A stretch of DNA of 11,677 nucleotides from an uncultured Deinococcales bacterium (lineage in GTDB: Bacteria; Deinococcota; Deinococci; Deinococcales; JAAFIG01). Position numbers and translations under genes: made by a program. Location of the stretch: contig CAXTTL010000152.1 of the NCBI GenBank assembly GCA_964247135.1, positions 1-11,677 of the forward strand, in the 5' to 3' direction. The notes under the pieces were generated by a model, which worked only from the letters and a program-made list of their open reading frames with translations, searched no databases and had not been told where the DNA came from. Shown here piece by piece: positions 1 through 11,677 of the stretch; position 1 is the stretch's first letter; each line of letters begins with the position of its first letter.

Positions 1-426
1 TCTGTCAAAATTGTTCTAGAGGTTGCACCGTGTGCGCTTGCCAGGATTGTCAAGCTCGAGCCTGAAGTCAAAAAAGCCAAAGCTGGCGATGTGGTTGGCG
101 TGAACGTGCGTTTGCAACCGTATCGCGGTACACCTGTGGTGCGCCGTGTGACGTTCAAAATCCCTGAATCTCAAGCCGAGGGCGCGTTAAAACTTCGGGT
201 GCGCGGTGGGCTAACCCCGCGTCCAGCCGACCCGAACGACTCCAACGACATTTTCGAGGGTGTGTTGACCTTCGAGGATTTGCTCGAGAAACTCAAGAAC
301 CGCCTCTCGAGCGAGAACATGTTCGTCGAATCGGGTTTTGGGCATGATACCGACATCATTGGCTTGGAAAAATTCGCCGATCCGGTGCTTGGTCTGATTC
401 CCTTCGAGATCACCGTGGTCAAGTAG
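1..426 (+). CDS. 3' part of a probable SpoIVB peptidase S55 domain-containing protein (5'-truncated by window)
   Basis: Frame is open from base 1 (SVKIVLEVAP...) to TAG at 424-426. The segment KAGDVVGVNVRLQPYRG...FKIP...GALKLRVRGG resembles the C-terminal region of S55-domain proteins. The catalytic domain is not in the window. Confidence 0.55.
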   Translation, partial: SVKIVLEVAPCALARIVKLEPEVKKAKAGDVVGVNVRLQPYRGTPVVRRVTFKIPESQAEGALKLRVRGGLTPRPADPNDSNDIFEGVLTFEDLLEKLKNRLSSENMFVESGFGHDTDIIGLEKFADPVLGLIPFEITVVK

Positions 427-465
427 CATCTCGAGTGCGGGTTTCAAGTTAAGCTGGGGGAACCT

Positions 466-1503
466 GTGAACAGAACCTTGACTTGGACCCGCGCAACCCT
501 GGCAAAACTTCTCGGCGGTGTGCTCGAGGGTGAGAACGCCAGCGTTGAAGCGATCAAAGAACCCAAAGATGCCACAGAGCACGACCTGACTTGCGTTTTG
601 CGTGAGCAGTATTTACCAGCCGCGCTCGACTCAGAGGCTGGGGTGCTGGTGGTTTCCACCGAGGTTAAAATCCCAGGCGCTCGAGCCGTGATTCGGGTTG
701 CGGACATCGAAACCGCCTGGGTTTCGTTACTGCGGGCGTTTGCCCCCAGCCTCGAGCGCAACCCTGGAATTCACCCTTCGGCGGTGGTTCACGAGACGGC
801 GCGGCTCGGGGCGGGCGTTTGCGTTGGCGCGAATGCGGTCATCGCTCGAGATGCTTTTATCGGAACGGGCAGTGTGATTGGGGCTGGAAGTTATATCGGT
901 GAACGTTCAACCCTGGGCGCAGATTGCCTGATTCACCCGAATGTCACGGTCTTGCACGACGTTCAAATGGGCGCTCGGGTCTTGGTGCAATCGGGCGCGG
1001 TGATCGGCTCGGACGGTTTTGGGTTTCAACGCACCAGCGAAAAACGCCACATTCGCCAAGAGCAAATTGGCGGCGTTTTGATCGAAGACGATGTCGAAAT
1101 TGGGGTGCACACCGTCATCGACCGTGGCACGATCACCACCATTCGGATTGGCGCAAGGACCAAAATTGGACCCGCCTGCATCATCGCGCACAACTCGAGC
1201 GTCGGTAGCGATTCGCTGTTGATTGGGGCGGTGCAACTGGCGGGTAGCGTGACCATTGAAGACCGTGTGGTGATGTGGGGACAGGTCGGCAGCGTCGGGC
1301 ATATTACGGTCGGCAGCGATTCGATGGTCACCGCGCAATCGGGTATTTCCAAAGACCTTGCGCCTGGCGGCACGTACCGAGGTTCGCCCGCCCAACCCAT
1401 CCGTGACCAGCTCAGGCTCGAGGCAAATCAACGTGAAATTGGCGGTTTGAAAGAAAAATTGCAGTCCCTCGCCGCCAAAATTACCGAACTCGAGTCCAAA
1501 TAG
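466..1503 (+). CDS. lpxD: UDP-3-O-acyl-glucosamine N-acyltransferase LpxD
   Basis: 345 aa with an N-terminal uridine-binding domain, hexapeptide left-handed beta-helix repeats (IHPSAVVHETARLG...), GSDGFGF, IDRG, catalytic IAHN, a GHI motif and a C-terminal helical extension. Confidence 0.95.
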   Translation: MNRTLTWTRATLAKLLGGVLEGENASVEAIKEPKDATEHDLTCVLREQYLPAALDSEAGVLVVSTEVKIPGARAVIRVADIETAWVSLLRAFAPSLERNPGIHPSAVVHETARLGAGVCVGANAVIARDAFIGTGSVIGAGSYIGERSTLGADCLIHPNVTVLHDVQMGARVLVQSGAVIGSDGFGFQRTSEKRHIRQEQIGGVLIEDDVEIGVHTVIDRGTITTIRIGARTKIGPACIIAHNSSVGSDSLLIGAVQLAGSVTIEDRVVMWGQVGSVGHITVGSDSMVTAQSGISKDLAPGGTYRGSPAQPIRDQLRLEANQREIGGLKEKLQSLAAKITELESK

Positions 1504-1576
1504 GGCACTTTATAATTTGAAAGTAAGACTTTGGATGAATTGAATGGTGTTTTTAAGGCGAAAACAGCCTCTGGCA

Positions 1577-1612
1577 TGATACGATGCGCCGTGGCATTTC
1601 TTGGGTGGGAGG
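1577..1612 (+). promoter_or_regulatory. Putative extended -10 (TGaTACGAT, 1577-1585) and Shine-Dalgarno (GGGAGG, 1607-1612) for lpxC
   Basis: Motifs read directly from the sequence. The SD lies 4 nt before the in-frame GTG at 1617. A perfect TATAAT also occurs at 1511-1516. Confidence 0.45.
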
Positions 1613-1616
1613 CTTC

Positions 1617-2468
1617 GTGAATACAACATTGCAAAAACTCGCGGAGAACGCTGCGGTCAACAATGCTATCCGTCCCTGGAATGGTCGAGGCGTCTCAAGT
1701 TGGATTCAAGGCATTGGCATACACTCGGGAGTCAACTCTCGAGTTCGTTTTTTGTCAGCTCCCAACGAACCGATTCGGATTCGCACCCAAAAAACCGAAA
1801 TCATGCTGGTCGCCGAGAGCGTGATCGACACGACGCTCGCCACCAAGCTCGGTTATCGCGGCGCCAGGGTTTCGACCGTCGAACACCTGCTGGCTGCCCT
1901 GTATGTGCTCGGGCATTGGCGCGGTTTTGTGATCGAGGTGGACGGTCCAGAAATCCCGATTCTCGACGGCAGCGGGCTGGGTTGGGCGCTCGCACTGGCA
2001 GAACTGACCCCAGAACCGACCCCAAACCCATTTAACCCTTACGACACCGCCGTCGAAATTCGGGGCGGTTACGTCGGACTGGAATCGTTCAAAGACGGTG
2101 AACCCATGCAGATCAGCGTCAGCGTCGGTTTCGCCCACCCCGCCATCGGCGAACAATCCTGGACGGGCAAACAAGCTGATTGGCTCAAGCTGCTCGACGC
2201 CAGAACCTTCGGTTTCGAGCGCGAGATTGAAAGGCTCTGGGCTTCGGGTCGCGGACTGGGCGCTCGAGCCGACAACGCCGTGGTTTACAACGAAACCGGA
2301 CCGAGCGTGCCAACCAGAGGCGCCGATGAGGTCGTGCGGCACAAAGCCCTGGATTTGCTGGGTGATTTGTACCTGGTCGGACGTCCACTGCAAGCCCACG
2401 TGGTTTCGGAACGCGCCAGCCACGAGGCGCACGTGGCTTTCGCGCTCGAGCTTCGTTCCCAAGGTTAA
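1617..2468 (+). CDS. lpxC: UDP-3-O-acyl-N-acetylglucosamine deacetylase LpxC
   Basis: Motifs GIGIHSG, TVEHLLAAL, EIPILDGS, ARTFGF, RHKALDLLGDL and a C-terminal ASH (catalytic His). GTG 1617 preferred as start because of the GGGAGG SD; ATG 1584 is the alternative. Confidence 0.93.
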   Translation: MNTTLQKLAENAAVNNAIRPWNGRGVSSWIQGIGIHSGVNSRVRFLSAPNEPIRIRTQKTEIMLVAESVIDTTLATKLGYRGARVSTVEHLLAALYVLGHWRGFVIEVDGPEIPILDGSGLGWALALAELTPEPTPNPFNPYDTAVEIRGGYVGLESFKDGEPMQISVSVGFAHPAIGEQSWTGKQADWLKLLDARTFGFEREIERLWASGRGLGARADNAVVYNETGPSVPTRGADEVVRHKALDLLGDLYLVGRPLQAHVVSERASHEAHVAFALELRSQG

Positions 2469-2480
2469 ATTAAAAATCTG

Positions 2481-2576
2481 GTAGGGTGCGCGTCTTGACC
2501 CTTACTACAGCACCTAGCGGGCTTGGGTCGCCGTGCGCACCGTCAGCCAAACGTTGGTGCGCAAGGCGCACCCTAC
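2481..2576. repeat. GTAG-type REP doublet (REPIN/BIME-like) between convergent genes
   Basis: GTAGGGTGCGC (2481-2491) and GCGCACCCTAC (2566-2576) are perfect inverted termini. The right unit reads GTAGGGTGCGCCTTGCGCACC on the minus strand (GTAG plus a 7-bp stem and 3-nt loop). The left unit has the same stem (GGTGCGC/GCGCACC, the latter at 2535-2541) around a 43-nt loop. Confidence 0.75.
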
Positions 2577-2610
2577 AGAATCGTGTCAGGGTCAGGCGTG
2601 TTGTCAGTTC

Positions 2611-2644
2611 AAAGAAGAGGCTCGAGATTTAAATTTCTCGAACC
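2611..2644 (-). terminator. Rho-independent terminator downstream of the molybdopterin oxidoreductase gene
   Basis: Minus strand reads GGTTCGAGA-aatttaaa-TCTCGAGCC (9-bp stem, one G-U pair) followed by TCTTCTTT, 8 nt after the stop codon. Confidence 0.65.
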
Positions 2645-2652
2645 ATTTATAT

Positions 2653-3249
2653 TTAATCGTCGCTGTAACGTTCTTGCTTCCAGGGGTCGCCGCGATCATG
2701 ATAGCCGTTGCGTTCCCAAAAACCGCGTTCGTCGTGGTCTAAAAACTCGAGTCCAGAAACCCATTTCGCAGACTTCCAAATGTACAGGTGCGGAATCACC
2801 AAACGCAGCGGTCCGCCGTGCTCGAGCGGCAATGGAGCGCCCTCGAGGGTGTGGGCGAAAAGGTTTTCTGGGCGGTTGAAATCTGAGATCGGCAAGTTGG
2901 TGGTGTAACCGCCGTAACAGTGAATCAAAACGTGCGTGGCGACTGGTTGAAGCGTCACTCGAGACATCAATTCTGGCACGGTGATGCCCGTCCAGGTGAC
3001 ATCGAGTTTTGACCAGTGCGTGACGCAATGAATGTCGTTGGTCAGCGTGGTTTGCGGCATGGCGTTTAACTCGTTCCAATCAAACGCGGTTTCGGTTGCC
3101 AAACCCCAGACCCGAATCCGCACGTTTTCGGGTTCGACCCGAGGGCTGGGACCGTAGGTCAGCACCGGAAAGCGCTCGGTAAGGGCTTGACCTGGCGGGG
3201 TGCGGCTGGCGAGGTCGTCGCTTGGTTTCTTAAAGAATTTTCCAAACAT
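2653..3249 (-). CDS. Sulfite-oxidase-family molybdopterin-binding oxidoreductase (YuiH-like, cytoplasmic)
   Basis: Motifs PPGQ..TERFPVL, IHCVTHWS (Mo-ligating Cys), EHGGPLRLVIPHLYIWKSAKW and GFWERNGYHDRGDPW. No Tat signal. Start at ATG 3249 (MFGKFFKKP), 5 nt after TGcTAACTT. Confidence 0.9.
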   Translation of the reverse strand: MFGKFFKKPSDDLASRTPPGQALTERFPVLTYGPSPRVEPENVRIRVWGLATETAFDWNELNAMPQTTLTNDIHCVTHWSKLDVTWTGITVPELMSRVTLQPVATHVLIHCYGGYTTNLPISDFNRPENLFAHTLEGAPLPLEHGGPLRLVIPHLYIWKSAKWVSGLEFLDHDERGFWERNGYHDRGDPWKQERYSDD

Positions 3250-3303
3250 GCCCCAAGTTAGCATCAAACGTTCAAGCTCGAGGTGGTTTGGGTTACGGAG
3301 TTG

Positions 3304-3816
3304 TTAAACTCGAGCGGCAATCAATTCTTGAAATTTCACAAAGGCTTGGGCGGTCACTTCGACATCCGCCAATGCGCGGTGACGCCCGTTGGGGACAAGT
3401 CCCAACCTCGAGCAAACCGCGTCAAGGTTGTGACTTCGTTCGCGCGGGAAAACACGCCTTGAAAGTTCGACGGTGCAAATGGCGTGTTTTGGAGGAATCA
3501 GGTTTAAACGCCCCGCATTTTCGCGGATGAAACCCATGTCAAAACTGGCATTGTGCGCGACCAGTTGCCGCCCAGCAATAAACTCGAGAAAGCCTGGCAG
3601 GGCGTTTTGAATGTTTGGCGCGTCGCGCACCATGCTGTCGCGGATGCCGTTGATGCGGGTGATGAAGTACGGGATGCTGCGCCCTGGGTTGACCAGTGTG
3701 TGAAAAACCTCGCCCGTCAAAACCCCGTCCTCCACGACCATCGCCCCAATCTCGAGAATCGCGTCTCTGGTGGGCGACAAACCTGTGGTTTCGAGGTCAA
3801 ATACGACGGCGGTCAT
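3304..3816 (-). CDS. Standalone DEDDh 3'-5' exonuclease (DNA polymerase III epsilon-like)
   Basis: ExoI VFDLETTG, ExoII AHNASFD and ExoIII HRALAD. Start placed at ATG 3816, 7 nt after TGaTAGGCT; ATG 3852 is the alternative. The ORF-track extension to 4143 overlaps the GNAT gene and is spurious. Confidence 0.9.
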   Translation of the reverse strand: MTAVVFDLETTGLSPTRDAILEIGAMVVEDGVLTGEVFHTLVNPGRSIPYFITRINGIRDSMVRDAPNIQNALPGFLEFIAGRQLVAHNASFDMGFIRENAGRLNLIPPKHAICTVELSRRVFPRERSHNLDAVCSRLGLVPNGRHRALADVEVTAQAFVKFQELIAARV

Positions 3817-3857
3817 CAACTCGAGCCTATCACTTTGCAGCGCTTTGGTCATGGGTT

Positions 3858-4370
3858 TTAAACTTTTCTTGACAAAATCAGGTCGCGTTGCGGGTCGCTG
3901 CCGAGTTGAAACACATGATCGCCAACCTCGAGAAAACCCATTTTCTGGTAAAAACGTTGCGCCCTTGGGTTGTGCTCCCAGACGCCCAACCAAATTTGGT
4001 CGGCATTTTTTGAAGCGACATGCTCGAGTAAAGTCTTCATCATGGTTTGTGCGATGCCCTGACCGTGCCAGGGCGAATCGACGTAAAAGCGCCTGATTTC
4101 GACTGGATTGCTTGCCTGCACGCAACTTGGGGCTGCCTGCCACGAAAGCTGAGTGTAAGCGATTAAGGCTTGTTCATGCTGGCAAACAAAGGTGTCCATC
4201 TCGGGATCAAGAATCTCTCGGGTTTGTATTTGGGCGCTGTAGGTGTCTTTGCAGTGCTGATCCATGTCGGCGCCGCTGTTGTCAGCCTCAAAAGTATCCC
4301 TGAAGGTTTTTTCGGCGAGGATTGCCAGCGCACTTGCATCCTTTGTTTCGGCTCTGCGAATCGACCACAT
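3858..4370 (-). CDS. GNAT family N-acetyltransferase (PaiA-like)
   Basis: 170 aa with EIRRFYV..WHGQGIA (acetyl-CoA motif A) and IWLGVWEHNPRAQRFYQKMGF...HVFQLGSDPQRD, typical of PaiA-like GNATs. Confidence 0.9.
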   Translation of the reverse strand: MWSIRRAETKDASALAILAEKTFRDTFEADNSGADMDQHCKDTYSAQIQTREILDPEMDTFVCQHEQALIAYTQLSWQAAPSCVQASNPVEIRRFYVDSPWHGQGIAQTMMKTLLEHVASKNADQIWLGVWEHNPRAQRFYQKMGFLEVGDHVFQLGSDPQRDLILSRKV

Positions 4371-4385
4371 GCGGATATTTTAAGC

Positions 4386-7202
4386 TTAAAGTTTGGGAAT
4401 AAATTGTGCCCGAGCCAAATCGATCCCAAATACCACCGTCAACCCGCCCCCAGGCGTGTCCTCGAGCCGCAAACTGCCGTCGGAAATCTCCAAGATGCGT
4501 TTGACCATCGCCAAGCCCACACCGGTGCCTTCGACGCTGGGGTCAAGCCTCGAGAATAAATCCAGGGCTTTGGTTTTCAGGGCGTTTGGAATGCCTGGTC
4601 CGTTGTCAGCCACGCTGAACTCGAGGGCGGTGTCGGTTTTTTCCCAGTTGATTTGAATGTCGCTGTTTGGTTTGGTGAATTTCACGGCATTGCCGATCAG
4701 GTTGGCAAAAAGTTGGTACAGGCGTTCTGGCGAGAAGGTCAGGGTCGGAAACTGCGTCGGTTGAATGATGCTCAGGTTTTTGGCGGCAATTTTGCCTTCG
4801 AGTTCTTGCAGCACCACCGCGATCACCTTGTCGACCTCGACGGCATCGAGGGTTTCGTCGATTCTTCCAATTCTGGAAAGCTCCAATAAACCGTTGACCA
4901 ACGCGGTCATGGTGTTGACGTTGGCGCGAAGCCTCGAGACAAAAAACTCGAGTTCGCTGGTGTCGCCCTCTTTTAAGCTTTCCTCGAGCAGGGTGCTCAT
5001 GCCCTCCAGGCTGACCATTGGGGCTTTCAGGTCGTGCGAGACGCTGTAAACAAAACTTTCCATCTCGGCGCTTTTTTCCTCCAGGGCGCGGTTGCGGGCT
5101 TCGAGTTCGGCTCGGGTGTTGGCACGCTCGAGCGCCAGCCCAATTGTGGCGGCGGCTCGAGCCATCAGGTCGCGTTCGCCAGGTCGCCACTCGCCGATTT
5201 CGGTTTCGCGTCCGACCGACAAGAGCGCGATCACCTGACCGTCTTCGGCTTTGACCGGTTCGATGCCGACGCTGACGCGCCTCGAGCGCATGTCTTCGAT
5301 GATGGTGTCGTTGTAGGTGGTGTCGTACCAGGCTTGGCGGGTTTCGACGATTTGTCTGGACAGAACGGTGTTGGTGATCGGCACCCCAGGTTTTTGAAAA
5401 TACCCGCTGTAGGCTTCGGGTAAATCGCCGTGAATGCCCATCGATTGCAAGAACACCCTGCCGTCCTGATGCTCGAGTTTGAGGATAATAATGTTCTTGG
5501 CGTTTAAAGCTGGCGCCAGCAGGCGCATGGCGGTTTCCGCGACCTCTTCGGCGGTCTGAACGGTTTGCAGGGCATCTGACAAGCCCGCCAAAAGTTCGGC
5601 TCGCGCCCTGGCTTGATGCAGCCGTTCGCGCACCCCAGCCCGCTCGAGCGCCAAACCGACCGTCGCGGCGGCTCGAGCCAGCAAATCTTTTTCGGTGATG
5701 CGCCAATCGCCCAATTTCGCATCGCGTCCTACGCTGAAAATGGCGACAATCTTGCCCTCAGAATCTCGGATCGGTTCGAGTCCCAAACTGACTTGGGCGC
5801 TGCCGCCAGAATCGTAAAACGCGTTGTTGGATTCGAGCACCAATTTGGTCAAACGGGTCTGCTCGAGTTGCACGCCACGGTTGACAAAATGCTGCTCGTA
5901 ACCTTTGGGCAGATCGCCCCAAGCGCCCGTGACCCGCAGTTGCAACTTGCCGCGCTGCTCATCGAGCTTGAGGGTAAAAATGTTGGTGGCGTGCAAGGTC
6001 GGACCCAGCAGGCGCATGGCGGTTTGCGCCACATCATCGGCGGTCTGGGCGCTTTGCAGGGCGTCCGAGAGCGCCGCCAAAAATTCTGCCCTGGCTCGAG
6101 CCTCAAACAGCGCCTCGGTGGTGTGAATTCGCTCGAGCGAAACCGCAATGGTGCGACCTGCGGCTGCCAGAAGATGCTTTTCAAATTCGCTCCAAGGGCG
6201 TTCACGGGCTGGGCGCAACGCCGCCAGGGCGCGGTTGCCGGCGATCAAATTCAGGTGTGATGGCAAAATCGGAATGACCGCCACAGCCCGAATGCCCGCC
6301 GTCAACCATTGACGAATCGGCGTTTGCGTGGCGGCGTAATCGTCAATAAAGCTTGGGTCGTTCGAGTGCAGCGCTTTTAACAAGGTTTGGTCATCAATTT
6401 GGTGCCAGGCGTTTAAATCTGCGGACTGGGCGATGGCTTCGTGTCCCTCAAAATCTTCAAAACGCAAATGCTGATCTTCCAGGACCGCAAAGCCCAAGCT
6501 GGCTCCGGCAAAATACGGTCTGAGCACCTCGAGCGCCGCGCGTTCCAAATCCCTGGCGTTTTGCACCCCCTCGAGCAACCTCGAGAGTGCCAGCAGGGCG
6601 CTGGCTTCTGGCGTTTGGGTGGTTTCTCGGGTTAATAAACGCTCGATGGGAATGGTCATCACGCGGGCGGTGGCAATCAGGGCGTAACGGCGCGAAGCGC
6701 CAAACGCCCGAACTTCACCGACCCGTCCCATCGCCAAAATGCCAAAGGTTCCTGCGGCGTTGGTCAAGGGCAAAAGCGCCAAACTCGAGGCTGGAATGCG
6801 TTTGAAAAGCTGATTTCCAGGGCTGTACTCGAGGTCATCGATAAACAAGGCGTGAGAGGTGTCAAAAACCGTCCAAATATCGTCGTTGGAGCGGTCATAC
6901 GACTCAATTCGGGCTTTGATACCCAGCGCCCCGCCCTGCCCAAATGCCGAGAGCAACTCGAGTTTGATGCCCTCGAGCGCGTAGAGCGCCACAAAATCCA
7001 CGTCAAAAACATCGTGGATTCCTGCCAGCAATTCCTCCAAGAGCACATCCAAAGCGGGACTGGAAATCAGCAGCGCCGTAAAACGCTCGAGCAGACTGGC
7101 GGGCAGTCGAACCTCGAGGTTTTCGCTGTCTGACGGTGCAAAATGGGTCATTGGCGCCGAAAATTCGGGCATGAGCGCTTGGTTTGGTTTTGGGCGCTTC
7201 AT
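4386..7202 (-). CDS. Cytoplasmic sensor histidine kinase with four GAF-like domains, HisKA and HATPase_c
   Basis: H-box FVYSVSHDLKAP, N-box LFANLIGNAVKF, G1 VADNGPGI, F-box LFSRL and G2 GTGVGLAMV. Four GAF-like segments each end in a helix of type (F/W)...LxxAAxx(I/V)xxxLER. No TM segment or receiver domain seen. The start could be a slightly downstream ATG. Confidence 0.9.
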   Translation of the reverse strand: MKRPKPNQALMPEFSAPMTHFAPSDSENLEVRLPASLLERFTALLISSPALDVLLEELLAGIHDVFDVDFVALYALEGIKLELLSAFGQGGALGIKARIESYDRSNDDIWTVFDTSHALFIDDLEYSPGNQLFKRIPASSLALLPLTNAAGTFGILAMGRVGEVRAFGASRRYALIATARVMTIPIERLLTRETTQTPEASALLALSRLLEGVQNARDLERAALEVLRPYFAGASLGFAVLEDQHLRFEDFEGHEAIAQSADLNAWHQIDDQTLLKALHSNDPSFIDDYAATQTPIRQWLTAGIRAVAVIPILPSHLNLIAGNRALAALRPARERPWSEFEKHLLAAAGRTIAVSLERIHTTEALFEARARAEFLAALSDALQSAQTADDVAQTAMRLLGPTLHATNIFTLKLDEQRGKLQLRVTGAWGDLPKGYEQHFVNRGVQLEQTRLTKLVLESNNAFYDSGGSAQVSLGLEPIRDSEGKIVAIFSVGRDAKLGDWRITEKDLLARAAATVGLALERAGVRERLHQARARAELLAGLSDALQTVQTAEEVAETAMRLLAPALNAKNIIILKLEHQDGRVFLQSMGIHGDLPEAYSGYFQKPGVPITNTVLSRQIVETRQAWYDTTYNDTIIEDMRSRRVSVGIEPVKAEDGQVIALLSVGRETEIGEWRPGERDLMARAAATIGLALERANTRAELEARNRALEEKSAEMESFVYSVSHDLKAPMVSLEGMSTLLEESLKEGDTSELEFFVSRLRANVNTMTALVNGLLELSRIGRIDETLDAVEVDKVIAVVLQELEGKIAAKNLSIIQPTQFPTLTFSPERLYQLFANLIGNAVKFTKPNSDIQINWEKTDTALEFSVADNGPGIPNALKTKALDLFSRLDPSVEGTGVGLAMVKRILEISDGSLRLEDTPGGGLTVVFGIDLARAQFIPKL

Positions 7203-7357
7203 GGCGATTCATAGACTAACCCAACACTCACAATTGTTTGTGAAATGGCAATTTTTTGATGTTGCAGACGCAAAAGTTTCACCACCATAATTTTCATTTT
7301 CGGCTCGGGCATTCGGGCTGACAATGCAAGAATCAAAAATGCGTTATCGTGCACAAC

Positions 7358-8092
7358 ATGGCAATAGACCTGATGCTGATTGTGGCGCACCCCGACGACG
7401 AATGCTACGGCACTGGCGGCACCTTCGCCGAATATGCCGCCAACGGCAAAGAGACCGCCCTCATCACCCTGACAAGGGGCAAATCGGGACGCTCCTTGGA
7501 GCTTTGCCTCCCAGAGGACCTGCCAGAGTTTCGCGCTCAAGAATTGCTCCAGAGCGTCAAACACCTCGGCATCAAGCACTTCTCGCATTACGAATACCCA
7601 GATGCCGCCCCCGTGTCTCGAAGTGAACAGTACGTCACCAGCATCCCAGGCACGTTCGTTGGCGGTTTACAAGACGTTCCGAGAGATGAAGTCGTGGCGA
7701 GGGTGACCCGAGAACTCGAGACGCTGCGCCCCAAAGTCTTGATGGGCTTCGCGCCAGACGGTGGCAACCGTCACCCAGACCACATCGCCAGCCACCAGAT
7801 CATGATGGCGGCATTAAAAAATACCGATTTGCTTGAGACTGGCACGCGGCTTTACTACTTTGCCTCGCCGACGTTAATGAACCCCGACTGGGCGGATACC
7901 TTTGTGCCAGCCACGCATCACCGCGATGTCCGCGATTACCTGCCGCAAAAACTTCGCGCCATTGCTTCGCACAGAACCCAGGCGCTGTCCACCGTTGGCT
8001 TTCTCTCAAGAATGGCAGAACGGATTGTGACCGAGACGTTCAGGCGCGTGCATCCCGTTTGGGACGTTGATGATCGCGGTTCGGAGTTGTAA
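7358..8092 (+). CDS. PIG-L/LmbE family N-acetylglucosaminyl deacetylase (BshB/MshB-like)
   Basis: Zn-binding motifs AHPDDE and HPDH, plus LTRGKSG and KLRAIASHRTQ. ATG 7358 lies 7 nt after TATCGT. Substrate cannot be determined from sequence alone. Confidence 0.88.
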   Translation: MAIDLMLIVAHPDDECYGTGGTFAEYAANGKETALITLTRGKSGRSLELCLPEDLPEFRAQELLQSVKHLGIKHFSHYEYPDAAPVSRSEQYVTSIPGTFVGGLQDVPRDEVVARVTRELETLRPKVLMGFAPDGGNRHPDHIASHQIMMAALKNTDLLETGTRLYYFASPTLMNPDWADTFVPATHHRDVRDYLPQKLRAIASHRTQALSTVGFLSRMAERIVTETFRRVHPVWDVDDRGSEL

Positions 8093-8244
8093 TTTATTTC
8101 GGGCTTTTGTCACTCCTTACCCCACACCACTTGAGGTGCGGAGGTCGGTTTAAACAAACCCAGAGAATTATCGGGGTGTCACTGTTCAGGCTGCCAGACG
8201 CCAAGTTCGCTGTTGAGAGATTGAACCCAAGCGTGATCGGTGTC

Positions 8245-9165
8245 CTATAAAGCCCTGGACAGGTGGTGCTCGGCGGCAGTAAGTTCCTTTCCCGCAGCAC
8301 GAACCATTCCCAGGAAAGCTGTCGTTATGGGTGCGCAATCCATCCGCGCCCATGCGGCAGCCAGTTCGACCTCGACCGATGGTCCCTCCAAAAAGCGGTA
8401 TTCGATGCCATCGCTGGGAGCCTTGCGCTGACTCGAGGATACCAACGCCAACCCCATACCCGCCGCGACGAGACCCACCACGGCTCCTTCCGTCGCCACT
8501 TCCTGCGTGACCCGGGGTGAAAAGCCAGCCGAGCGGCATAGACCTGTGATTGCGTCGTAAACGCTTGGCTTGATGGCTCGTTGGTAGAGCACAAAGTGTT
8601 CGTCTGCGGCAGCTCGCAATGGAACGCGGGTCAGCTTGGTGAGGGCATGACCTTTGGGCAAGGCGATGATCAGGGGTTCGCGCAGAACGATCTCCATCGA
8701 AAGGGCGGGGTTGCTCACGGGAGGGCATAACAAACCCACCCGCACGTTTCCCTCATTGAGGGCTGCTTCGACCTCTGGAGAACTCAGCTCGTGCAGTTTC
8801 AGCTCCACGTCTGGGTAGCGTTCGCGGAAGCGGCGCACGGTCGGAGGCAAGACGTTGTGCAAGGTTCCAGACGCGTATCCCACACTGAGCTGACCCACCT
8901 CGCCTCGAGCTGTCCGCTGAGCCGCCTCAGCCGCGTCCGCCGTGTGCTGCAAAATTGACCGAACTTCTTTTAAATACACTTGTCCCGCCTCCGTCAGCTC
9001 GACCTTGCGCGAGGTGCGCTCGAACAACCGCACGCCGAGGCTATCTTCCAATCGCTTGATGGCTGCGCTGAGCGGCTGCTGGGCGAGATGGAGTCGCTCT
9101 GCAGCCCGCCCGAAGTGAAGTTCCTCGGCGACGGCAACGAAGTAACGCATCAGGCGGTGATCCAT
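8245..9165 (-). CDS. LysR family transcriptional regulator (BenM/HcaR-like)
   Basis: N-terminal HTH YFVAVAEELHFGRAAERLHLAQQPLSAAIKRLEDSLGVRLFERTSR; substrate-binding domain with LVAAGMGLALV. Divergent from an oxidoreductase gene. Confidence 0.95.
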   Translation of the reverse strand: MDHRLMRYFVAVAEELHFGRAAERLHLAQQPLSAAIKRLEDSLGVRLFERTSRKVELTEAGQVYLKEVRSILQHTADAAEAAQRTARGEVGQLSVGYASGTLHNVLPPTVRRFRERYPDVELKLHELSSPEVEAALNEGNVRVGLLCPPVSNPALSMEIVLREPLIIALPKGHALTKLTRVPLRAAADEHFVLYQRAIKPSVYDAITGLCRSAGFSPRVTQEVATEGAVVGLVAAGMGLALVSSSQRKAPSDGIEYRFLEGPSVEVELAAAWARMDCAPITTAFLGMVRAAGKELTAAEHHLSRAL

Positions 9166-9225
9166 GAGGTTCTTTGTAGCACGATCATGCAGGTTTTAAG
9201 TGTCAGTTGGATTTCAAAGAAGTGT

Positions 9226-9254
9226 TGGACGCGGGTCATTCCCGATCCTATACT
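9226..9254 (+). promoter_or_regulatory. Putative sigma70 promoter of the oxidoreductase gene (TGGACG-17 nt-TATACT)
   Basis: TGGACG at 9226-9231 and TATACT at 9249-9254 with a 17-nt spacer, in the LysR-divergent intergenic region. Confidence 0.5.
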
Positions 9255-9389
9255 CATCTCATCACGCGGCGCGTGTCGGACGGACACAAATGGCGAACTG
9301 AAGTTCGACCGAAGCTCTTGTGTTGTTGTATATCCACAATGTTTAAGGCGTCGAGGGCAACCAATCCAGTCATCCAAAAAGGAGATTTC

Positions 9390-10382
9390 ATGCAGACCAT
9401 ATCCATCCCACGTTTTGGCACACCTGAGGTTTTGCAGGCGCTCGACAGACCCAGCCCTCATCCTGGTCCAAACGAGGTCACCATTGACGTCGCATACGCG
9501 GGTGTGAACTACGCCGAGATTTTGTTCCGAAAAGGTGTGATAGCGGATTTGCCCTTGCCCTTCACGCCTGGTATCGAGGTGTCTGGGTACGTGCGTGAGC
9601 TGGGGACAGGTGTCGGCGGGTTCGAAGTTGGTCAGCGGGTCGCGGCGCTCAGCATTGTGAACGGGGGTGGCTACGCGCAGACCGTCACCGTGCCCGCTGC
9701 GTTGACCGTACCGCTCCCGCAAAGCTTGCCGCTCGAGGTGGCGGCGGCGTTCCCGTCCAACACCACAACGGCATACCTGGTCTGGCACGAACTCGCCCAT
9801 CTGAGAGCAGGAGAGGCGGTGGTCGTCCACGCCGCTGCGGGTGGCGTCGGTGGCGTGCTCGGTCAGATGGCGCGTGCGCTGAAGGCTGGCAGGGTCATCG
9901 GCACGGTCGGAAGCGCCACCAAGATCGAGTACGCCAGGTCTTTGGGTTTTGACGAGGTGGTTCTTGCGGATGGTTTCGAGGCAAGCATAGGGCAGCTCAC
10001 AAATGGGCGCGGCGTCGATGTCGTGGTCGATCAGGTGGGCGGCACCGCCAGACAGGGCAGCTTGAACTTGCTGCGCCCCCTGGGACGCCTGGTGGTGATG
10101 GGTAACGCGAGTGACGCCGAAGACGTTCCAGTCTCACCGCTGACATTATGGTTCTCGAGCAAGTCCGTGCTGGGATTCAACTTGCAACTCCTCAGTGCGA
10201 CATATCCTGAGTTGGTTGGGCAGTCCATGCGAGCAGCCTTGGGTCACGTCCAGAGCGGTCAGGTGCGGGTGGACGTGACGCGCGTGCTGCCCCTGTCTGA
10301 GGCAGCCGAGGCGCACCGCCTCATCGAGGCGCGTGCGACGAAGGGCAAACTCGTTCTGCGGGTCGGCGGCGAACAGTCATGA
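9390..10382 (+). CDS. NADPH:quinone oxidoreductase-like protein (MDR superfamily, zeta-crystallin type)
   Basis: Motifs FGTPEVL, AGVNYAE, PFTPGIEVSG, HAAAGGVG (nucleotide binding), GRGVDVVVD and AHRLIEAR..KGKLVL. Lacks Zn-binding cysteines. Strong SD AAGGAGA precedes ATG 9390. Confidence 0.92.
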   Translation: MQTISIPRFGTPEVLQALDRPSPHPGPNEVTIDVAYAGVNYAEILFRKGVIADLPLPFTPGIEVSGYVRELGTGVGGFEVGQRVAALSIVNGGGYAQTVTVPAALTVPLPQSLPLEVAAAFPSNTTTAYLVWHELAHLRAGEAVVVHAAAGGVGGVLGQMARALKAGRVIGTVGSATKIEYARSLGFDEVVLADGFEASIGQLTNGRGVDVVVDQVGGTARQGSLNLLRPLGRLVVMGNASDAEDVPVSPLTLWFSSKSVLGFNLQLLSATYPELVGQSMRAALGHVQSGQVRVDVTRVLPLSEAAEAHRLIEARATKGKLVLRVGGEQS

Positions 10383-10572
10383 GCAATGAAAATGGTCAGG
10401 GTTTTGACGGTGGCTTCCGAAGCATAAAATCATTTGACTCGAGTTGAACCCGAATCAAGGTTTATTCACAACTCCAACGCAACTTGAGCGTCATTGCGCG
10501 TTTGTGGTGGTCTTGCGTGTGCCTAGACAAGACCAACGAACCCTCAACACAGATCACGGTATCCTAAAATCA

Positions 10573-11677
10573 ATGAGCAACGCCAAAACTTTCCCAACCG
10601 AACTCGAGATTCAACCCCTCGAGCGTCCAATCAATGCCACCGTCACACCGCCAGGTTCCAAGTCGTACACCAACCGCGCCCTGCCGATAGCGGCACTGGC
10701 GAACGGCACTAGCTCGCTGACGGGCGCATTGTTTTCCGATGACACGCATTACATGACCAAAGCGCTGCTCGAGCTTGGTTTTGAAATCTCGAGTGATGAA
10801 GAAAAAAACACTTTTTCCGTCAAAGGTACAAACGGTCGTATTCCTCGAGATTCTGCTCAAGTTTTTATTGGAAACTCTGGCACGACGGCGCGTTTCTTAA
10901 CGCCACTGATGGCGCTCGGACACGGCACGTTCGAGCTTGATGGTGTGCCAGCCATGCAAAAACGCCCGATTCAACCGCTTTTAGATGCGTTAAGTACTTT
11001 GGGCGCTCGAGCCTCGAGCATTCATGGCACGGGTTGCCCACCGATTCGGATTGAAGCCAGCGGCTTGCGCGGCGGCACAGTCAAAATGCGCGGCGACCTG
11101 ACCAGCCAAGTTTTCAGCGCCCTGCTGATGAGCGCCCCGTATTTTGAAAACGGCATCACGCTCGAGGTGGACGGCGAACTTGTCTCCAAACCGTACCTCG
11201 AGGTCACGGCGCAAACCATGAAGGCGTTCGGGGTTGATCTCGAGATTCAAAATTTCGAGCGCTTTATTGTGAAGCCTGGCGAGTACATTGCCACCAATTA
11301 TGCCGTCGAACCTGACGCCAGCGCCGCCAGTTATTTCTTTGCCGCCGCCGCCATCACCGCTGGGCGCGTGGTCGTGCCAGGACTTGGAAAAAACAGTCTG
11401 CAAGGCGACTTAAACTTTGTGCGCGTGCTCGAGCAGATGGGTTGCACGGTCAACCAAACCGAAACGCAAACCGAAGTGATCGGCACAACCAACCTGCGCG
11501 GCGTCGAAATTGACATGAGCCAAATCTCCGATACCGCCCAAACCTTGGCTGCCGTGGCGCCGTTCGCCTCGAGTCCCACCCGCATCACGGGCATTGGCTT
11601 TATTCGCCGCAAAGAAACAGACCGCGTTGGCGCTGTGGTGCGCGAATTGCAACACCTGGGCATCAATGCCATCGAAG
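10573..11677 (+). CDS. aroA: 3-phosphoshikimate 1-carboxyvinyltransferase (EPSP synthase), 3'-truncated by window
   Basis: Hand translation from ATG 10573: MSNAKTFPTELEIQPL...PPGSKSYTNRAL...SDDT...GNSGTTARF...KRPI...TSQVFSALL...SKPYLEVT...VEPDASAASYF...SLQGD...RRKETDR. Absent from the ORF track because there is no stop in the window. Confidence 0.96.
   Translation, partial: MSNAKTFPTELEIQPLERPINATVTPPGSKSYTNRALPIAALANGTSSLTGALFSDDTHYMTKALLELGFEISSDEEKNTFSVKGTNGRIPRDSAQVFIGNSGTTARFLTPLMALGHGTFELDGVPAMQKRPIQPLLDALSTLGARASSIHGTGCPPIRIEASGLRGGTVKMRGDLTSQVFSALLMSAPYFENGITLEVDGELVSKPYLEVTAQTMKAFGVDLEIQNFERFIVKPGEYIATNYAVEPDASAASYFFAAAAITAGRVVVPGLGKNSLQGDLNFVRVLEQMGCTVNQTETQTEVIGTTNLRGVEIDMSQISDTAQTLAAVAPFASSPTRITGIGFIRRKETDRVGAVVRELQHLGINAIE

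Follow-up and report, generated by a model that had tools for sequence, protein, structure and literature searches.

The stretch of DNA analyzed here (the window), 11,677 nucleotides (nt) of an uncultured Deinococcales bacterium, raises the question of why a single palindrome, CTCGAG, should recur so densely along it. Exactly 69 copies were counted between positions 55 and 11573, that is, one per 169 bp, in agreement with an earlier sequence-only reading of this DNA, which had arrived by hand at about 69 copies, one per ~170 bp. In 200 dinucleotide-preserving shuffles of the window, the GC content of which is 0.54-0.59, the mean number of copies was 2.66 (standard deviation 1.57, largest 7) and none reached 69. 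As that reading had also stated, the sites occur in all frames, in genes of both strands and in intergenic DNA. Sixty-five of them lie within the 11 assigned genes, with 38 in the frame CTC-GAG, 12 in xCT-CGA-Gxx and 15 in xxC-TCG-AGx, 28 in genes of the plus strand and 37 in genes of the minus strand, while the remaining four are intergenic; the example chosen from aroA proved correct, the sites at 11006 and 11013 occupying two different frames. Our analysis revealed a highly iterated palindrome in CTCGAG, which an uncultured Deinococcales family carries as an exact six-base word at near-saturating density.

The excess is not limited to one contig. The assembly containing the window as contig C152 (hereafter G000; 5.09 Mb, 386 contigs, GC 52.7%) carries 33,925 CTCGAG sites, corresponding to one per 150 bp or ~6,660 per Mb and to 4% of all bases, and all of its contigs of at least 5 kb carry at least 2.56 sites/kb. 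CTCGAG is the commonest hexamer of G000, with an observed-to-expected ratio (O/E) of 24.75 under a zero-order and of 35 under a dinucleotide model. The O/E falls to only 1.24 under a maximal-order Markov model, a value that does not refute the excess, because the expectation is then drawn from CTCGA and TCGAG, which are almost wholly made of sites. The nine classes of one-off words around CTCGAG were found at O/E 0.08-1.74, and the flanks are biased weakly and symmetrically (39% of the sites have G at -1, and 37% have A at -3). The TaqI core TCGA, which the sequence-only reading had pointed out, has no role of its own, occurring 20,685 times outside CTCGAG against 19,771 expected. Furthermore, the commonest 14-mer around a site has only 21 copies, most or all of which derive from a CRISPR repeat, and the sites are therefore not carried by a repeat family.

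Palindromic hexamers in general were found to be strongly avoided in G000, with 28 of the 64 at O/E below 0.1, 37 below 0.25 and 48 below 0.5. Among the rare ones are GGGCCC (1 copy), CGGCCG (3), AGGCCT (4), CGTACG (5) and GGATCC (7). The tetramer GGCC has 380 copies (O/E 0.02), and the reversed word GAGCTC has none in 5.09 Mb.

The contribution of codon and amino-acid usage was assessed on a crude gene set of G000, consisting of the 4,514 longest non-overlapping open reading frames (ORFs), which cover 86% of the genome and show a codon-position base composition typical of real genes. This set contains 28,532 CTCGAG sites, compared to 4,010 after shuffling synonymous codons within genes and 1,692 after shuffling whole codons. 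The frame CTC-GAG accounts for 17,385 sites (3,120 after the synonymous shuffle), xCT-CGA-Gxx for 4,543 (317) and xxC-TCG-AGx for 6,604 (573), the latter two frames being 14-fold and 12-fold above the shuffle. In non-ORF DNA of the same assembly the word occurs at 7.5 sites/kb (O/E 33), and in the interiors of gaps of 120-800 bp at 6.6 sites/kb, so that its density in non-coding DNA is as high as in coding DNA. The codons concerned are in the minority outside the word: when not adjacent, CTC makes up 15% of Leu codons and GAG 33% of Glu codons, while CTC-GAG encodes 76.8% of Leu-Glu pairs against 4.9% expected. Similarly, CGA rises from 11-13% of Arg codons elsewhere to 83% in site context, and TCG from 15-23% of Ser codons to 88%. 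Leu-Glu is the top over-used dipeptide of the proteome (O/E 2.39, with Glu-Leu at 1.02), a ratio that would correspond to roughly 13,000 extra Leu-Glu pairs. These results support a DNA-level force that maintains CTCGAG independently of codon and amino-acid usage. The view that amino-acid usage alone would be insufficient is thus borne out, and the excess, examined genome-wide at zero and dinucleotide order as had been proposed, survives codon control as well.

The distribution of the word was examined by whole-genome counts in 41 genomes of the order, 19 of the family (five genera) and 22 of four sister families. CTCGAG density was found to be 4.3-6.8 sites/kb in all 19 family genomes and 0.03-2.9 sites/kb in the 22 sister-family genomes, with a sharp boundary at the family level. 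The reversed word GAGCTC, used as a control, has 3-25 copies in 15 of the other family genomes and 114-568 in three, compared to 62-3,684 in the sister families. The latter show a modest CTCGAG excess, mostly in the CTC-GAG frame and 1.2-2.7-fold over the synonymous shuffle; in two GC-richer members of the family the respective values are 4.2 and 6.7. Given its presence throughout the family, the system is old. Relatives are non-independent samples, and only G011 is closed, the other 18 family genomes being incomplete and binned by composition. Among the sister-family genomes, G019 is a possible intermediate, with 1.55 sites/kb, only 62 copies of GAGCTC and rare GGCC. Its non-ORF DNA holds 7 CTCGAG in 1,983 bp, a small sample, and its aroA is among the closest outside the family (51% in tblastn).

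Site conservation in orthologues, another check that had been suggested, was examined in 400 kb of the same-genus genome G005 aligned to G000 (300,832 columns, 84.7% identity). CTCGAG was fully conserved in 79.1% of 4,117 comparisons made in both directions, against a mean of 43.6% for all hexamers, and ranked first among the 1,117 canonical hexamers with at least 200 occurrences. At synonymous positions there are approximately 4-5 times fewer changes inside sites than outside. Third positions differed in 6.8% of CTC codons in sites (n=1,099) and 33.4% elsewhere (n=1,084), in 5.5% (n=1,113) and 29.9% (n=1,286) of GAG codons, in 10.6% (n=255) and 38.0% (n=442) of CGA codons, and in 6.4% (n=406) and 26.4% (n=881) of TCG codons, respectively. 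Outside ORFs, 68.6% of 220 sites were conserved versus 38.5% of all non-ORF hexamers. In the non-conserved sites the differences are spread about equally over the six positions; the single-change partners comprise 123, 121 and 104 cases for the three transitions and 30, 25, 23, 15, 6 and 6 for the transversions. All six positions are about equally important and the flanks hardly so. The copies are kept by a weak genome-wide force that acts on the DNA itself and overrides synonymous codon choice.

The same comparisons indicate how copies arise. Only 25 of the 4,117 site comparisons fell at gaps. In a codon alignment of aroA from 27 genomes, sites are shared across genera, specific to a genus or located at neighboring offsets in different lineages, and they came about through synonymous codon changes (AGG to CGA) or through replacement of residues at variable positions. 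The two aroA sites of the window at 11006 and 11013 have been kept or lost independently of each other among same-genus relatives. Since sites rarely fall at gaps, belong to no repeat family and coincide with codon changes in aroA, copies arise in place through base substitution rather than insertion.

A segment of the window containing a LysR gene and an alcohol dehydrogenase (ADH) gene, at 8099-10517, was found to be missing at this locus in all five same-genus genomes and in contigs of the sequencing runs X3 and X7. The run contigs compared with the window belong to relatives that are ~88-90% identical; the window itself was not found in the sequencing runs, seven of which share 0.05-0.12 of its sampled words, and no RNA match was listed. 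The segment is higher in GC (0.59) and has sites at one third of the density found otherwise, holding five against 64 in the other 9,258 bp, when 16.7 would be expected (Poisson P = 8e-4). Among the 41 genomes its sole close homolog is in G008, which belongs to another genus (76% amino-acid and 72-73% DNA identity). Probably the segment was acquired recently and sites are still accumulating in it. As it shares no site column with the G008 homolog, its sites were gained in place within acquired DNA. Copies therefore arise in coding, non-coding and newly acquired DNA alike.

The placement of sites along G000 was found to be more even than chance. Gaps shorter than 25 bp number 2,363, compared to 5,219 expected, and gap lengths show a surplus at 50-150 bp and a shortfall at 300-1000 bp. 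The longest CTCGAG-free stretch in 5.09 Mb is 2,644 bp, every 4-kb window holds at least five sites, and three low-GC islands (GC 0.36) still have 2.75-3.4 sites/kb. This evenness may partly be an artifact, as G000 is a metagenome bin and binning by composition may have discarded atypical DNA. The local benefit of sites saturates. A search for periodicity in the spacing up to 300 bp, as had been proposed, returned the 3-bp coding period but no helical (10-11 bp) or other period. Density is flat over gene starts and ends except after stop codons, where it peaks at 13.0, 9.9 and 8.6 sites/kb within the first 60 bp. Neighboring copies can pair as a hairpin, and 173 pairs of sites 9-20 bp apart are followed by a T-rich tail, like intrinsic terminators. 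In the closed family genome G011, the 23S ribosomal RNA (rRNA) gene holds one site in 2,933 bp, compared to 18 in 3,000 bp of its flanks; the force therefore yields to strong sequence constraint.

G000 has one CRISPR array (C221:6954-8137; L364), the 37-base repeat of which contains CTCGAG, and the same repeat is found in arrays of G002 and G003. The 65 unique spacers of the three genomes (2,256 nt) contain 16 CTCGAG in 14 spacers, compared to 0.48 expected from composition, and neither GGCC nor GAGCTC, which is the word signature of the host itself. Only one of the 14 unique G000 spacers matches its own assembly: the spacer at C221:7702-7738 agrees in 35 of 37 bases with C25:927-961, a stretch of ordinary chromosome within an AhpC/TSA gene that neighbors rodA. 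Most of the DNA sampled by adaptation is therefore not from the assembled genome of the host but carries the same word, and its source could be kin DNA or co-evolved mobile elements.

Taking these results together, we tentatively favor, with less than even confidence, the reading of CTCGAG as a methylation-independent 'self' tag recognized in duplex form, probably during uptake or recombination of DNA. Because the word is symmetric and its six bases weigh equally, the reader may be a two-fold symmetric, i.e., dimeric, protein. At DNA entry or recombination, CTCGAG would mark 'self' or kin DNA, as proposed for uptake sequences and HIP1, the highly iterated palindrome of cyanobacteria. Cells would more often import, or keep and recombine, DNA richer in the word, and site-creating changes would spread while site-destroying ones would be lost, a drive that would reinforce itself and whose local benefit would saturate. 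Unlike HIP1, for which a methylation-dependent enhancement of transformation and a role as uptake or transformation tag have been put forward (PMC13756078), this drive would seemingly not depend on a conserved cognate methyltransferase. We favor the kin-DNA tag since it accounts for the presence of the word in CRISPR spacers, for the terminator pairs and for a drive whose benefit saturates locally, and since it fits current work on HIP1. A more specific version, in which the word is a methylation-independent watermark of kin DNA common to the chromosomes of the family and to incoming or mobile DNA, with a dimeric receptor reading the bare hexamer, a drive and an origin independent of HIP1, is possible but rather doubtful.

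Several points weigh against the kin-DNA tag. No single protein emerged as a candidate reader of CTCGAG, and competence for transformation can only be assumed for these uncultured bacteria. ComEC (PF03772), found in 18 of the 19 family genomes, is non-discriminating, as it is present in all 22 other genomes of the order too. Known uptake sequences are longer, oriented and non-palindromic, and occur about once per kb. The evidence would fit a drive or ordinary selection, and an uptake tag or a protective or architectural site, alike. Non-orthologous methyltransferases of the same specificity must also be reckoned with, given that only one of the 19 genomes is complete. Only three genomes, all of one genus, provide the spacer signal, which could stem from biased acquisition, from spacers drawn from the chromosomes of self or kin, or from phages or plasmids that co-evolved with the host; the 16 spacer sites, a small number, hint at clustering at the 5' end and the center. 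Finally, no phage of the clade was found by viral-contig scan, capsid profile or spacer matching: the HK97-type capsid (PF05065) exceeded the cut-off in none of the 19 family genomes, four CRISPR spacers, one per locus, had no exact match in viral contigs, and the G000 array had no match among GenBank phages.

Viral contigs with three clustered sites (at least 120 stretches) were considered as phages of the clade. The densest of those listed, with 3.4-6.8 sites/kb, were assigned to other hosts because of a GC content of 0.58-0.72, plentiful GGCC, the presence of GAGCTC in most cases and only one protein similar to G000. IMG/VR contigs L231, L283, L262, L197 and others combine a GC content of 0.64-0.70 with 4.9-6.8 CTCGAG/kb. 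In L283 the word is present in all frames and outside ORFs, and GAGCTC is absent from both L283 and L197. No link of L283 to the family as its host was established, as a DNA search against five family genomes gave only weak matches of 35-116 bp. These contigs suggest that other, GC-richer hosts or their phages also carry iterated CTCGAG.

The comparison with known systems places CTCGAG next to HIP1 (GCGATCGC) and its alternates in cyanobacteria, which are likewise short GC-rich palindromes, over-represented tens-fold in all frames and in non-coding DNA (PMC4390886, PMC5861425, PMC13756078). In these papers HIP1 is further described as spreading by substitution, as being conserved beyond codon and protein constraint, as more evenly spaced than by chance and as present in CRISPR repeats, all of which apply to CTCGAG. 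On the other hand, CTCGAG belongs to another phylum (Deinococcota), is a different and shorter word of six bases, has made Leu-Glu the top dipeptide, and no methyltransferase common to its carriers was found. HIP1 is quoted at 300-2,700 copies per Mb (PMC4390886), while CTCGAG reaches ~6,700 per Mb and is denser than any highly iterated palindrome quoted in the papers compared. Of the features ascribed to this class of words, abundance (at least ~1,000 per Mb), occurrence in all frames and non-coding DNA, conservation and substitution-based spread were found. The proposal of a HIP1-like DNA-level system thus stands with respect to the iterated palindrome and to its maintenance at the DNA level, as seen in shuffles and conservation, but found no support with respect to a solitary methyltransferase with biased repair; the nucleoid-protein site and the recombination or uptake tag that it had also named are still candidates. 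The main text of Elhai 2015 (PMC4390886) does not contain the word CTCGAG, and no published report of CTCGAG as an iterated palindrome was found in full-text searches of the literature, although supplementary tables of papers on these palindromes may list more words.

Restriction-modification (R-M) systems of the XhoI/PaeR7I type share the same six-base word, a palindrome recognized by dimeric enzymes; their targets are normally avoided, while CTCGAG is enriched 25-fold in a family in which XhoI nucleases were found in none of the 19 genomes. The uptake signal sequences (USS) of Pasteurellaceae and the DNA uptake sequences (DUS) of Neisseriaceae are oriented words of 9-12 bases occurring about once per kb, for which uptake specificity and a receptor have been shown experimentally. 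They share with CTCGAG a family-wide, evenly spread genome-wide excess in genes and spacers, a peptide bias and inverted pairs in terminators, and are thought to accumulate by a drive based on biased uptake and recombination. CTCGAG is instead a six-base palindrome with weak flanks, present once per 150 bp, and is not an oriented word of 9-12 bases. Chi is an asymmetric, strand-oriented and mildly enriched 'self' word that controls the processing of DNA ends. It is likewise over-represented, but CTCGAG is palindromic and RecC (PF04257) was found in none of the five family genomes searched, no search for AddAB having been made.

A first alternative, which we consider unlikely, follows the HIP1 model of Elhai: a solitary or R-M methyltransferase would mark CTCGAG, the marked word would serve replication, strand choice in mismatch repair, regulation or transformation, and its density would be selected. 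All HIP-bearing cyanobacterial genomes have been reported with a matching methyltransferase (PMC4390886), and the genomes analyzed here are rich in such enzymes. G000 has 11 DNA methyltransferase genes of several classes, and C5 methyltransferases occur in 18 of the 19 family genomes, compared to seven of the 22 genomes of other families. Moreover, the extreme avoidance of other palindromes shows heavy R-M traffic, and non-orthologous enzymes could have a common specificity. Nevertheless, the search for a CTCGAG methyltransferase that the sequence-only reading had called for yielded no orthologue group common to the 19 family genomes, a result to be read with the caveats that specificity is not readable from the sequence and that 18 of the assemblies are incomplete, in which the absence of a gene is weak evidence. 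For a 349-amino-acid (aa) N4/N6 methyltransferase (C36), G002 and G007 alone have high-identity orthologs, and G010 has a fragment of 48 residues. The D12-class adenine methyltransferase is present in seven of the 19 genomes. The C5 enzymes fall into unrelated groups and were not found in G008 (91% complete); the single C5 copy of G011 spans 1,050 bp devoid of CTCGAG, its identity to the other C5 enzymes in the comparison does not exceed 34%, and it therefore looks foreign. PF01555, the class that accompanies XhoI-type systems, had no match in the closed G011, and matches of the Eco57I/N6 type, either HsdM-like or long and type IIG/L-like, are not common to the family. A candidate methyltransferase of ~500 aa in G011, G008 and G009 was discarded, its members being HsdM-like or unrelated.

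The search was extended to nucleases. The XhoI family (PF04555) was found in none of the 19 family genomes, no search being aimed at other families of CTCGAG-cutting nucleases. In the sister families, G021 (L079) and G033 (L078) carry an XhoI-family nuclease with a convergent 340-aa N4/N6 methyltransferase, while in a third genome, G031 (L080/L081), the nuclease is broken by stop codons; the three genomes have 1.7-2.0 CTCGAG sites/kb. The methyltransferase adjoining these nucleases, which is of the same N4/N6 type as that of the predicted CTCGAG system of M. smegmatis (PMC7526240), has no ortholog in the 19 family genomes. The substitution spectrum is a further point against a methylated word, since the near-equal half-site transitions (123, 121 and 104) leave no hot spot of 5-methylcytosine deamination, although N6-methyladenine or N4-methylcytosine would be compatible with them. 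The lack of a shared methyltransferase counts, if less firmly, against the cyanobacterial model.

Two further observations concern methyltransferase genes of G000. On contig C320 (L143:320-2244, minus strand), a gene for a 277-aa D12 adenine methyltransferase overlaps the start of a nuclease-like 364-aa gene without an assigned family, and the two look like a type II R-M pair. At the contig ends C4:1-397 and C207:3-827, one N4/N6 methyltransferase gene is present in two overlapping versions that differ slightly, which reflect either strain heterogeneity or an intragenic assembly break.

A second alternative, which we regard as quite improbable, is that an abundant dimeric protein that organizes or protects the chromosome binds CTCGAG, e.g., against breaks caused by desiccation, freezing or ultraviolet light, or as a self mark against a nuclease, and that continuous cover is selected. 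The exact palindrome with all positions equally constrained, the even spacing with its largest gap of 2,644 bp and its minimum of five sites per 4 kb, and the equal density in coding and non-coding DNA would all suit such a protein. In addition, order on the kilobase scale underlay a structural proposal for HIP1 (PMC5861425). However, no candidate protein was found, no period beyond 3 bp was detected up to 300 bp, and the evenness figures come from a binned metagenome assembly from which atypical DNA has perhaps been removed. A Chi-like role is at odds with the failure to find RecC in the five genomes searched, a search that did not include AddAB. Furthermore, a purely chromosomal role does not predict the word in CRISPR spacers, one of 14 of which is self-matching, whereas the kin-DNA tag accounts for it.

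Very unlikely, in our view, is biased very-short-patch or mismatch repair, in which a site-specific nicking or repair enzyme would convert near-matches to a functionless CTCGAG. Such a drive would act alike on coding, non-coding and acquired DNA, as seen, and in E. coli repair by Dcm/Vsr is known to bias word content, one short word becoming more frequent through a DNA-level process that is indifferent to coding. For HIP1, Elhai proposed a methyl-directed ratchet (PMC4390886). In the present case, however, Vsr (PF03852) was found in none of the 19 family genomes, the precursor words CTTGAG/CTCAAG are not depleted (O/E 1.17), and the effect is larger than that of Dcm/Vsr by at least an order of magnitude. 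Patch repair concerns one mismatch at one position, while the differences are even over the six positions and the three transitions, with no position-specific spectrum; a 25-fold excess with nine one-off classes near 1 would need conversion from every neighbor. The solitary methyltransferase with biased repair, put forward earlier as a candidate, is therefore unsupported, lacking a shared ortholog, Vsr and anything but a flat spectrum over the half-site positions. Lastly, there is a negligible chance that the excess is a side effect of codon, dicodon or amino-acid usage or an artifact of assembly or cloning: of the 28,532 coding sites, 17,385 are indeed in the frame CTC-GAG, more than in either of the others, and GC-rich sister families show a 2-8-fold excess mostly in that frame, but this account is refuted by the shuffles and the non-ORF O/E of 33, and the minority status of CTC and GAG outside the word, the recurrence of the feature in 19 independent assemblies and in public contigs of other samples, and the depleted 23S rRNA gene between its dense flanks all speak against it.

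HIP1 has remained a puzzle for three decades, with studies confined to a single phylum, and CTCGAG provides a second, independent and stronger case. It allows methylation, a repair ratchet, an uptake tag and chromosome structure to be tested against one another by comparison. New here are the counts in 41 genomes with a reversed-word control, the conservation and synonymous-position tests over 300 kb, the flat substitution spectrum, the systematic negative search for enzymes (methyltransferase, XhoI family, Vsr and RecC), the site-poor acquired segment and the CRISPR-spacer signature. From a practical point of view, CTCGAG distorts binning by k-mers as well as the codon models and dipeptide statistics of this clade, and XhoI-type enzymes are predicted to shred the genomes of the family. 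The word also provides a simple signature for recognizing DNA of the clade, and perhaps its mobile elements, in metagenomes. If the kin-DNA watermark were true, iterated palindromes would be a general, convergent solution to the recognition of self DNA.

The genes of the window were assigned from ORFs and Pfam matches. Their order is orf1, an lpxD-like acyltransferase gene, lpxC, and genes for a molybdopterin oxidoreductase, an RNase T-like exonuclease, a GNAT protein, a GAF histidine kinase, a PIG-L deacetylase, a LysR protein and a Zn-dependent ADH, followed by aroA. The features related to CTCGAG are listed in the following table.

Features of the window related to CTCGAG (positions are those of the 11,677-nt stretch)
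Feature	Positions	Strand	Remarks	Basis
CTCGAG copies	55..11573	.	n=69	count vs shuffles
Site pair in aroA	11006..11018	+	7 bp apart, different frames (GCT-CGA-G and C-TCG-AG)	count, codon alignment
Intergenic site	430..435	.	between orf1 and lpxD-like gene	
Intergenic site	2621..2626	.	between lpxC and molybdopterin oxidoreductase gene	
Intergenic site	3277..3282	.	between oxidoreductase gene and RNase T-like exonuclease gene	
Intergenic site	10438..10443	.	directly upstream of aroA	
GAF histidine-kinase gene	4386..7202	-	24 sites, 8.5/kb, densest gene of the window	
LysR and Zn-dependent alcohol dehydrogenase segment	8099..10517	.	site-poor, 5 sites in 2,419 bp	

Two observations on the window concern neighboring features. 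The genes at 466-2468 are lipid A genes, found here in a relative within Deinococcales. LpxC (PF03331) was not found in the controls Deinococcus radiodurans and Thermus thermophilus, while it was detected in 17 of the 19 family genomes and, in the sister families, in 5/6, 1/5, 2/5 and 0/6 genomes. Between lpxC and the following gene, at 2481-2578, lies a dispersed element of ~98 bp from which CTCGAG is absent. It is bounded by terminal inverted repeats (GGTAGGGTGCGC ... GCGCACCCTAC), and dozens of copies or half-copies of it, 75-98% identical, are present in G001-G005.

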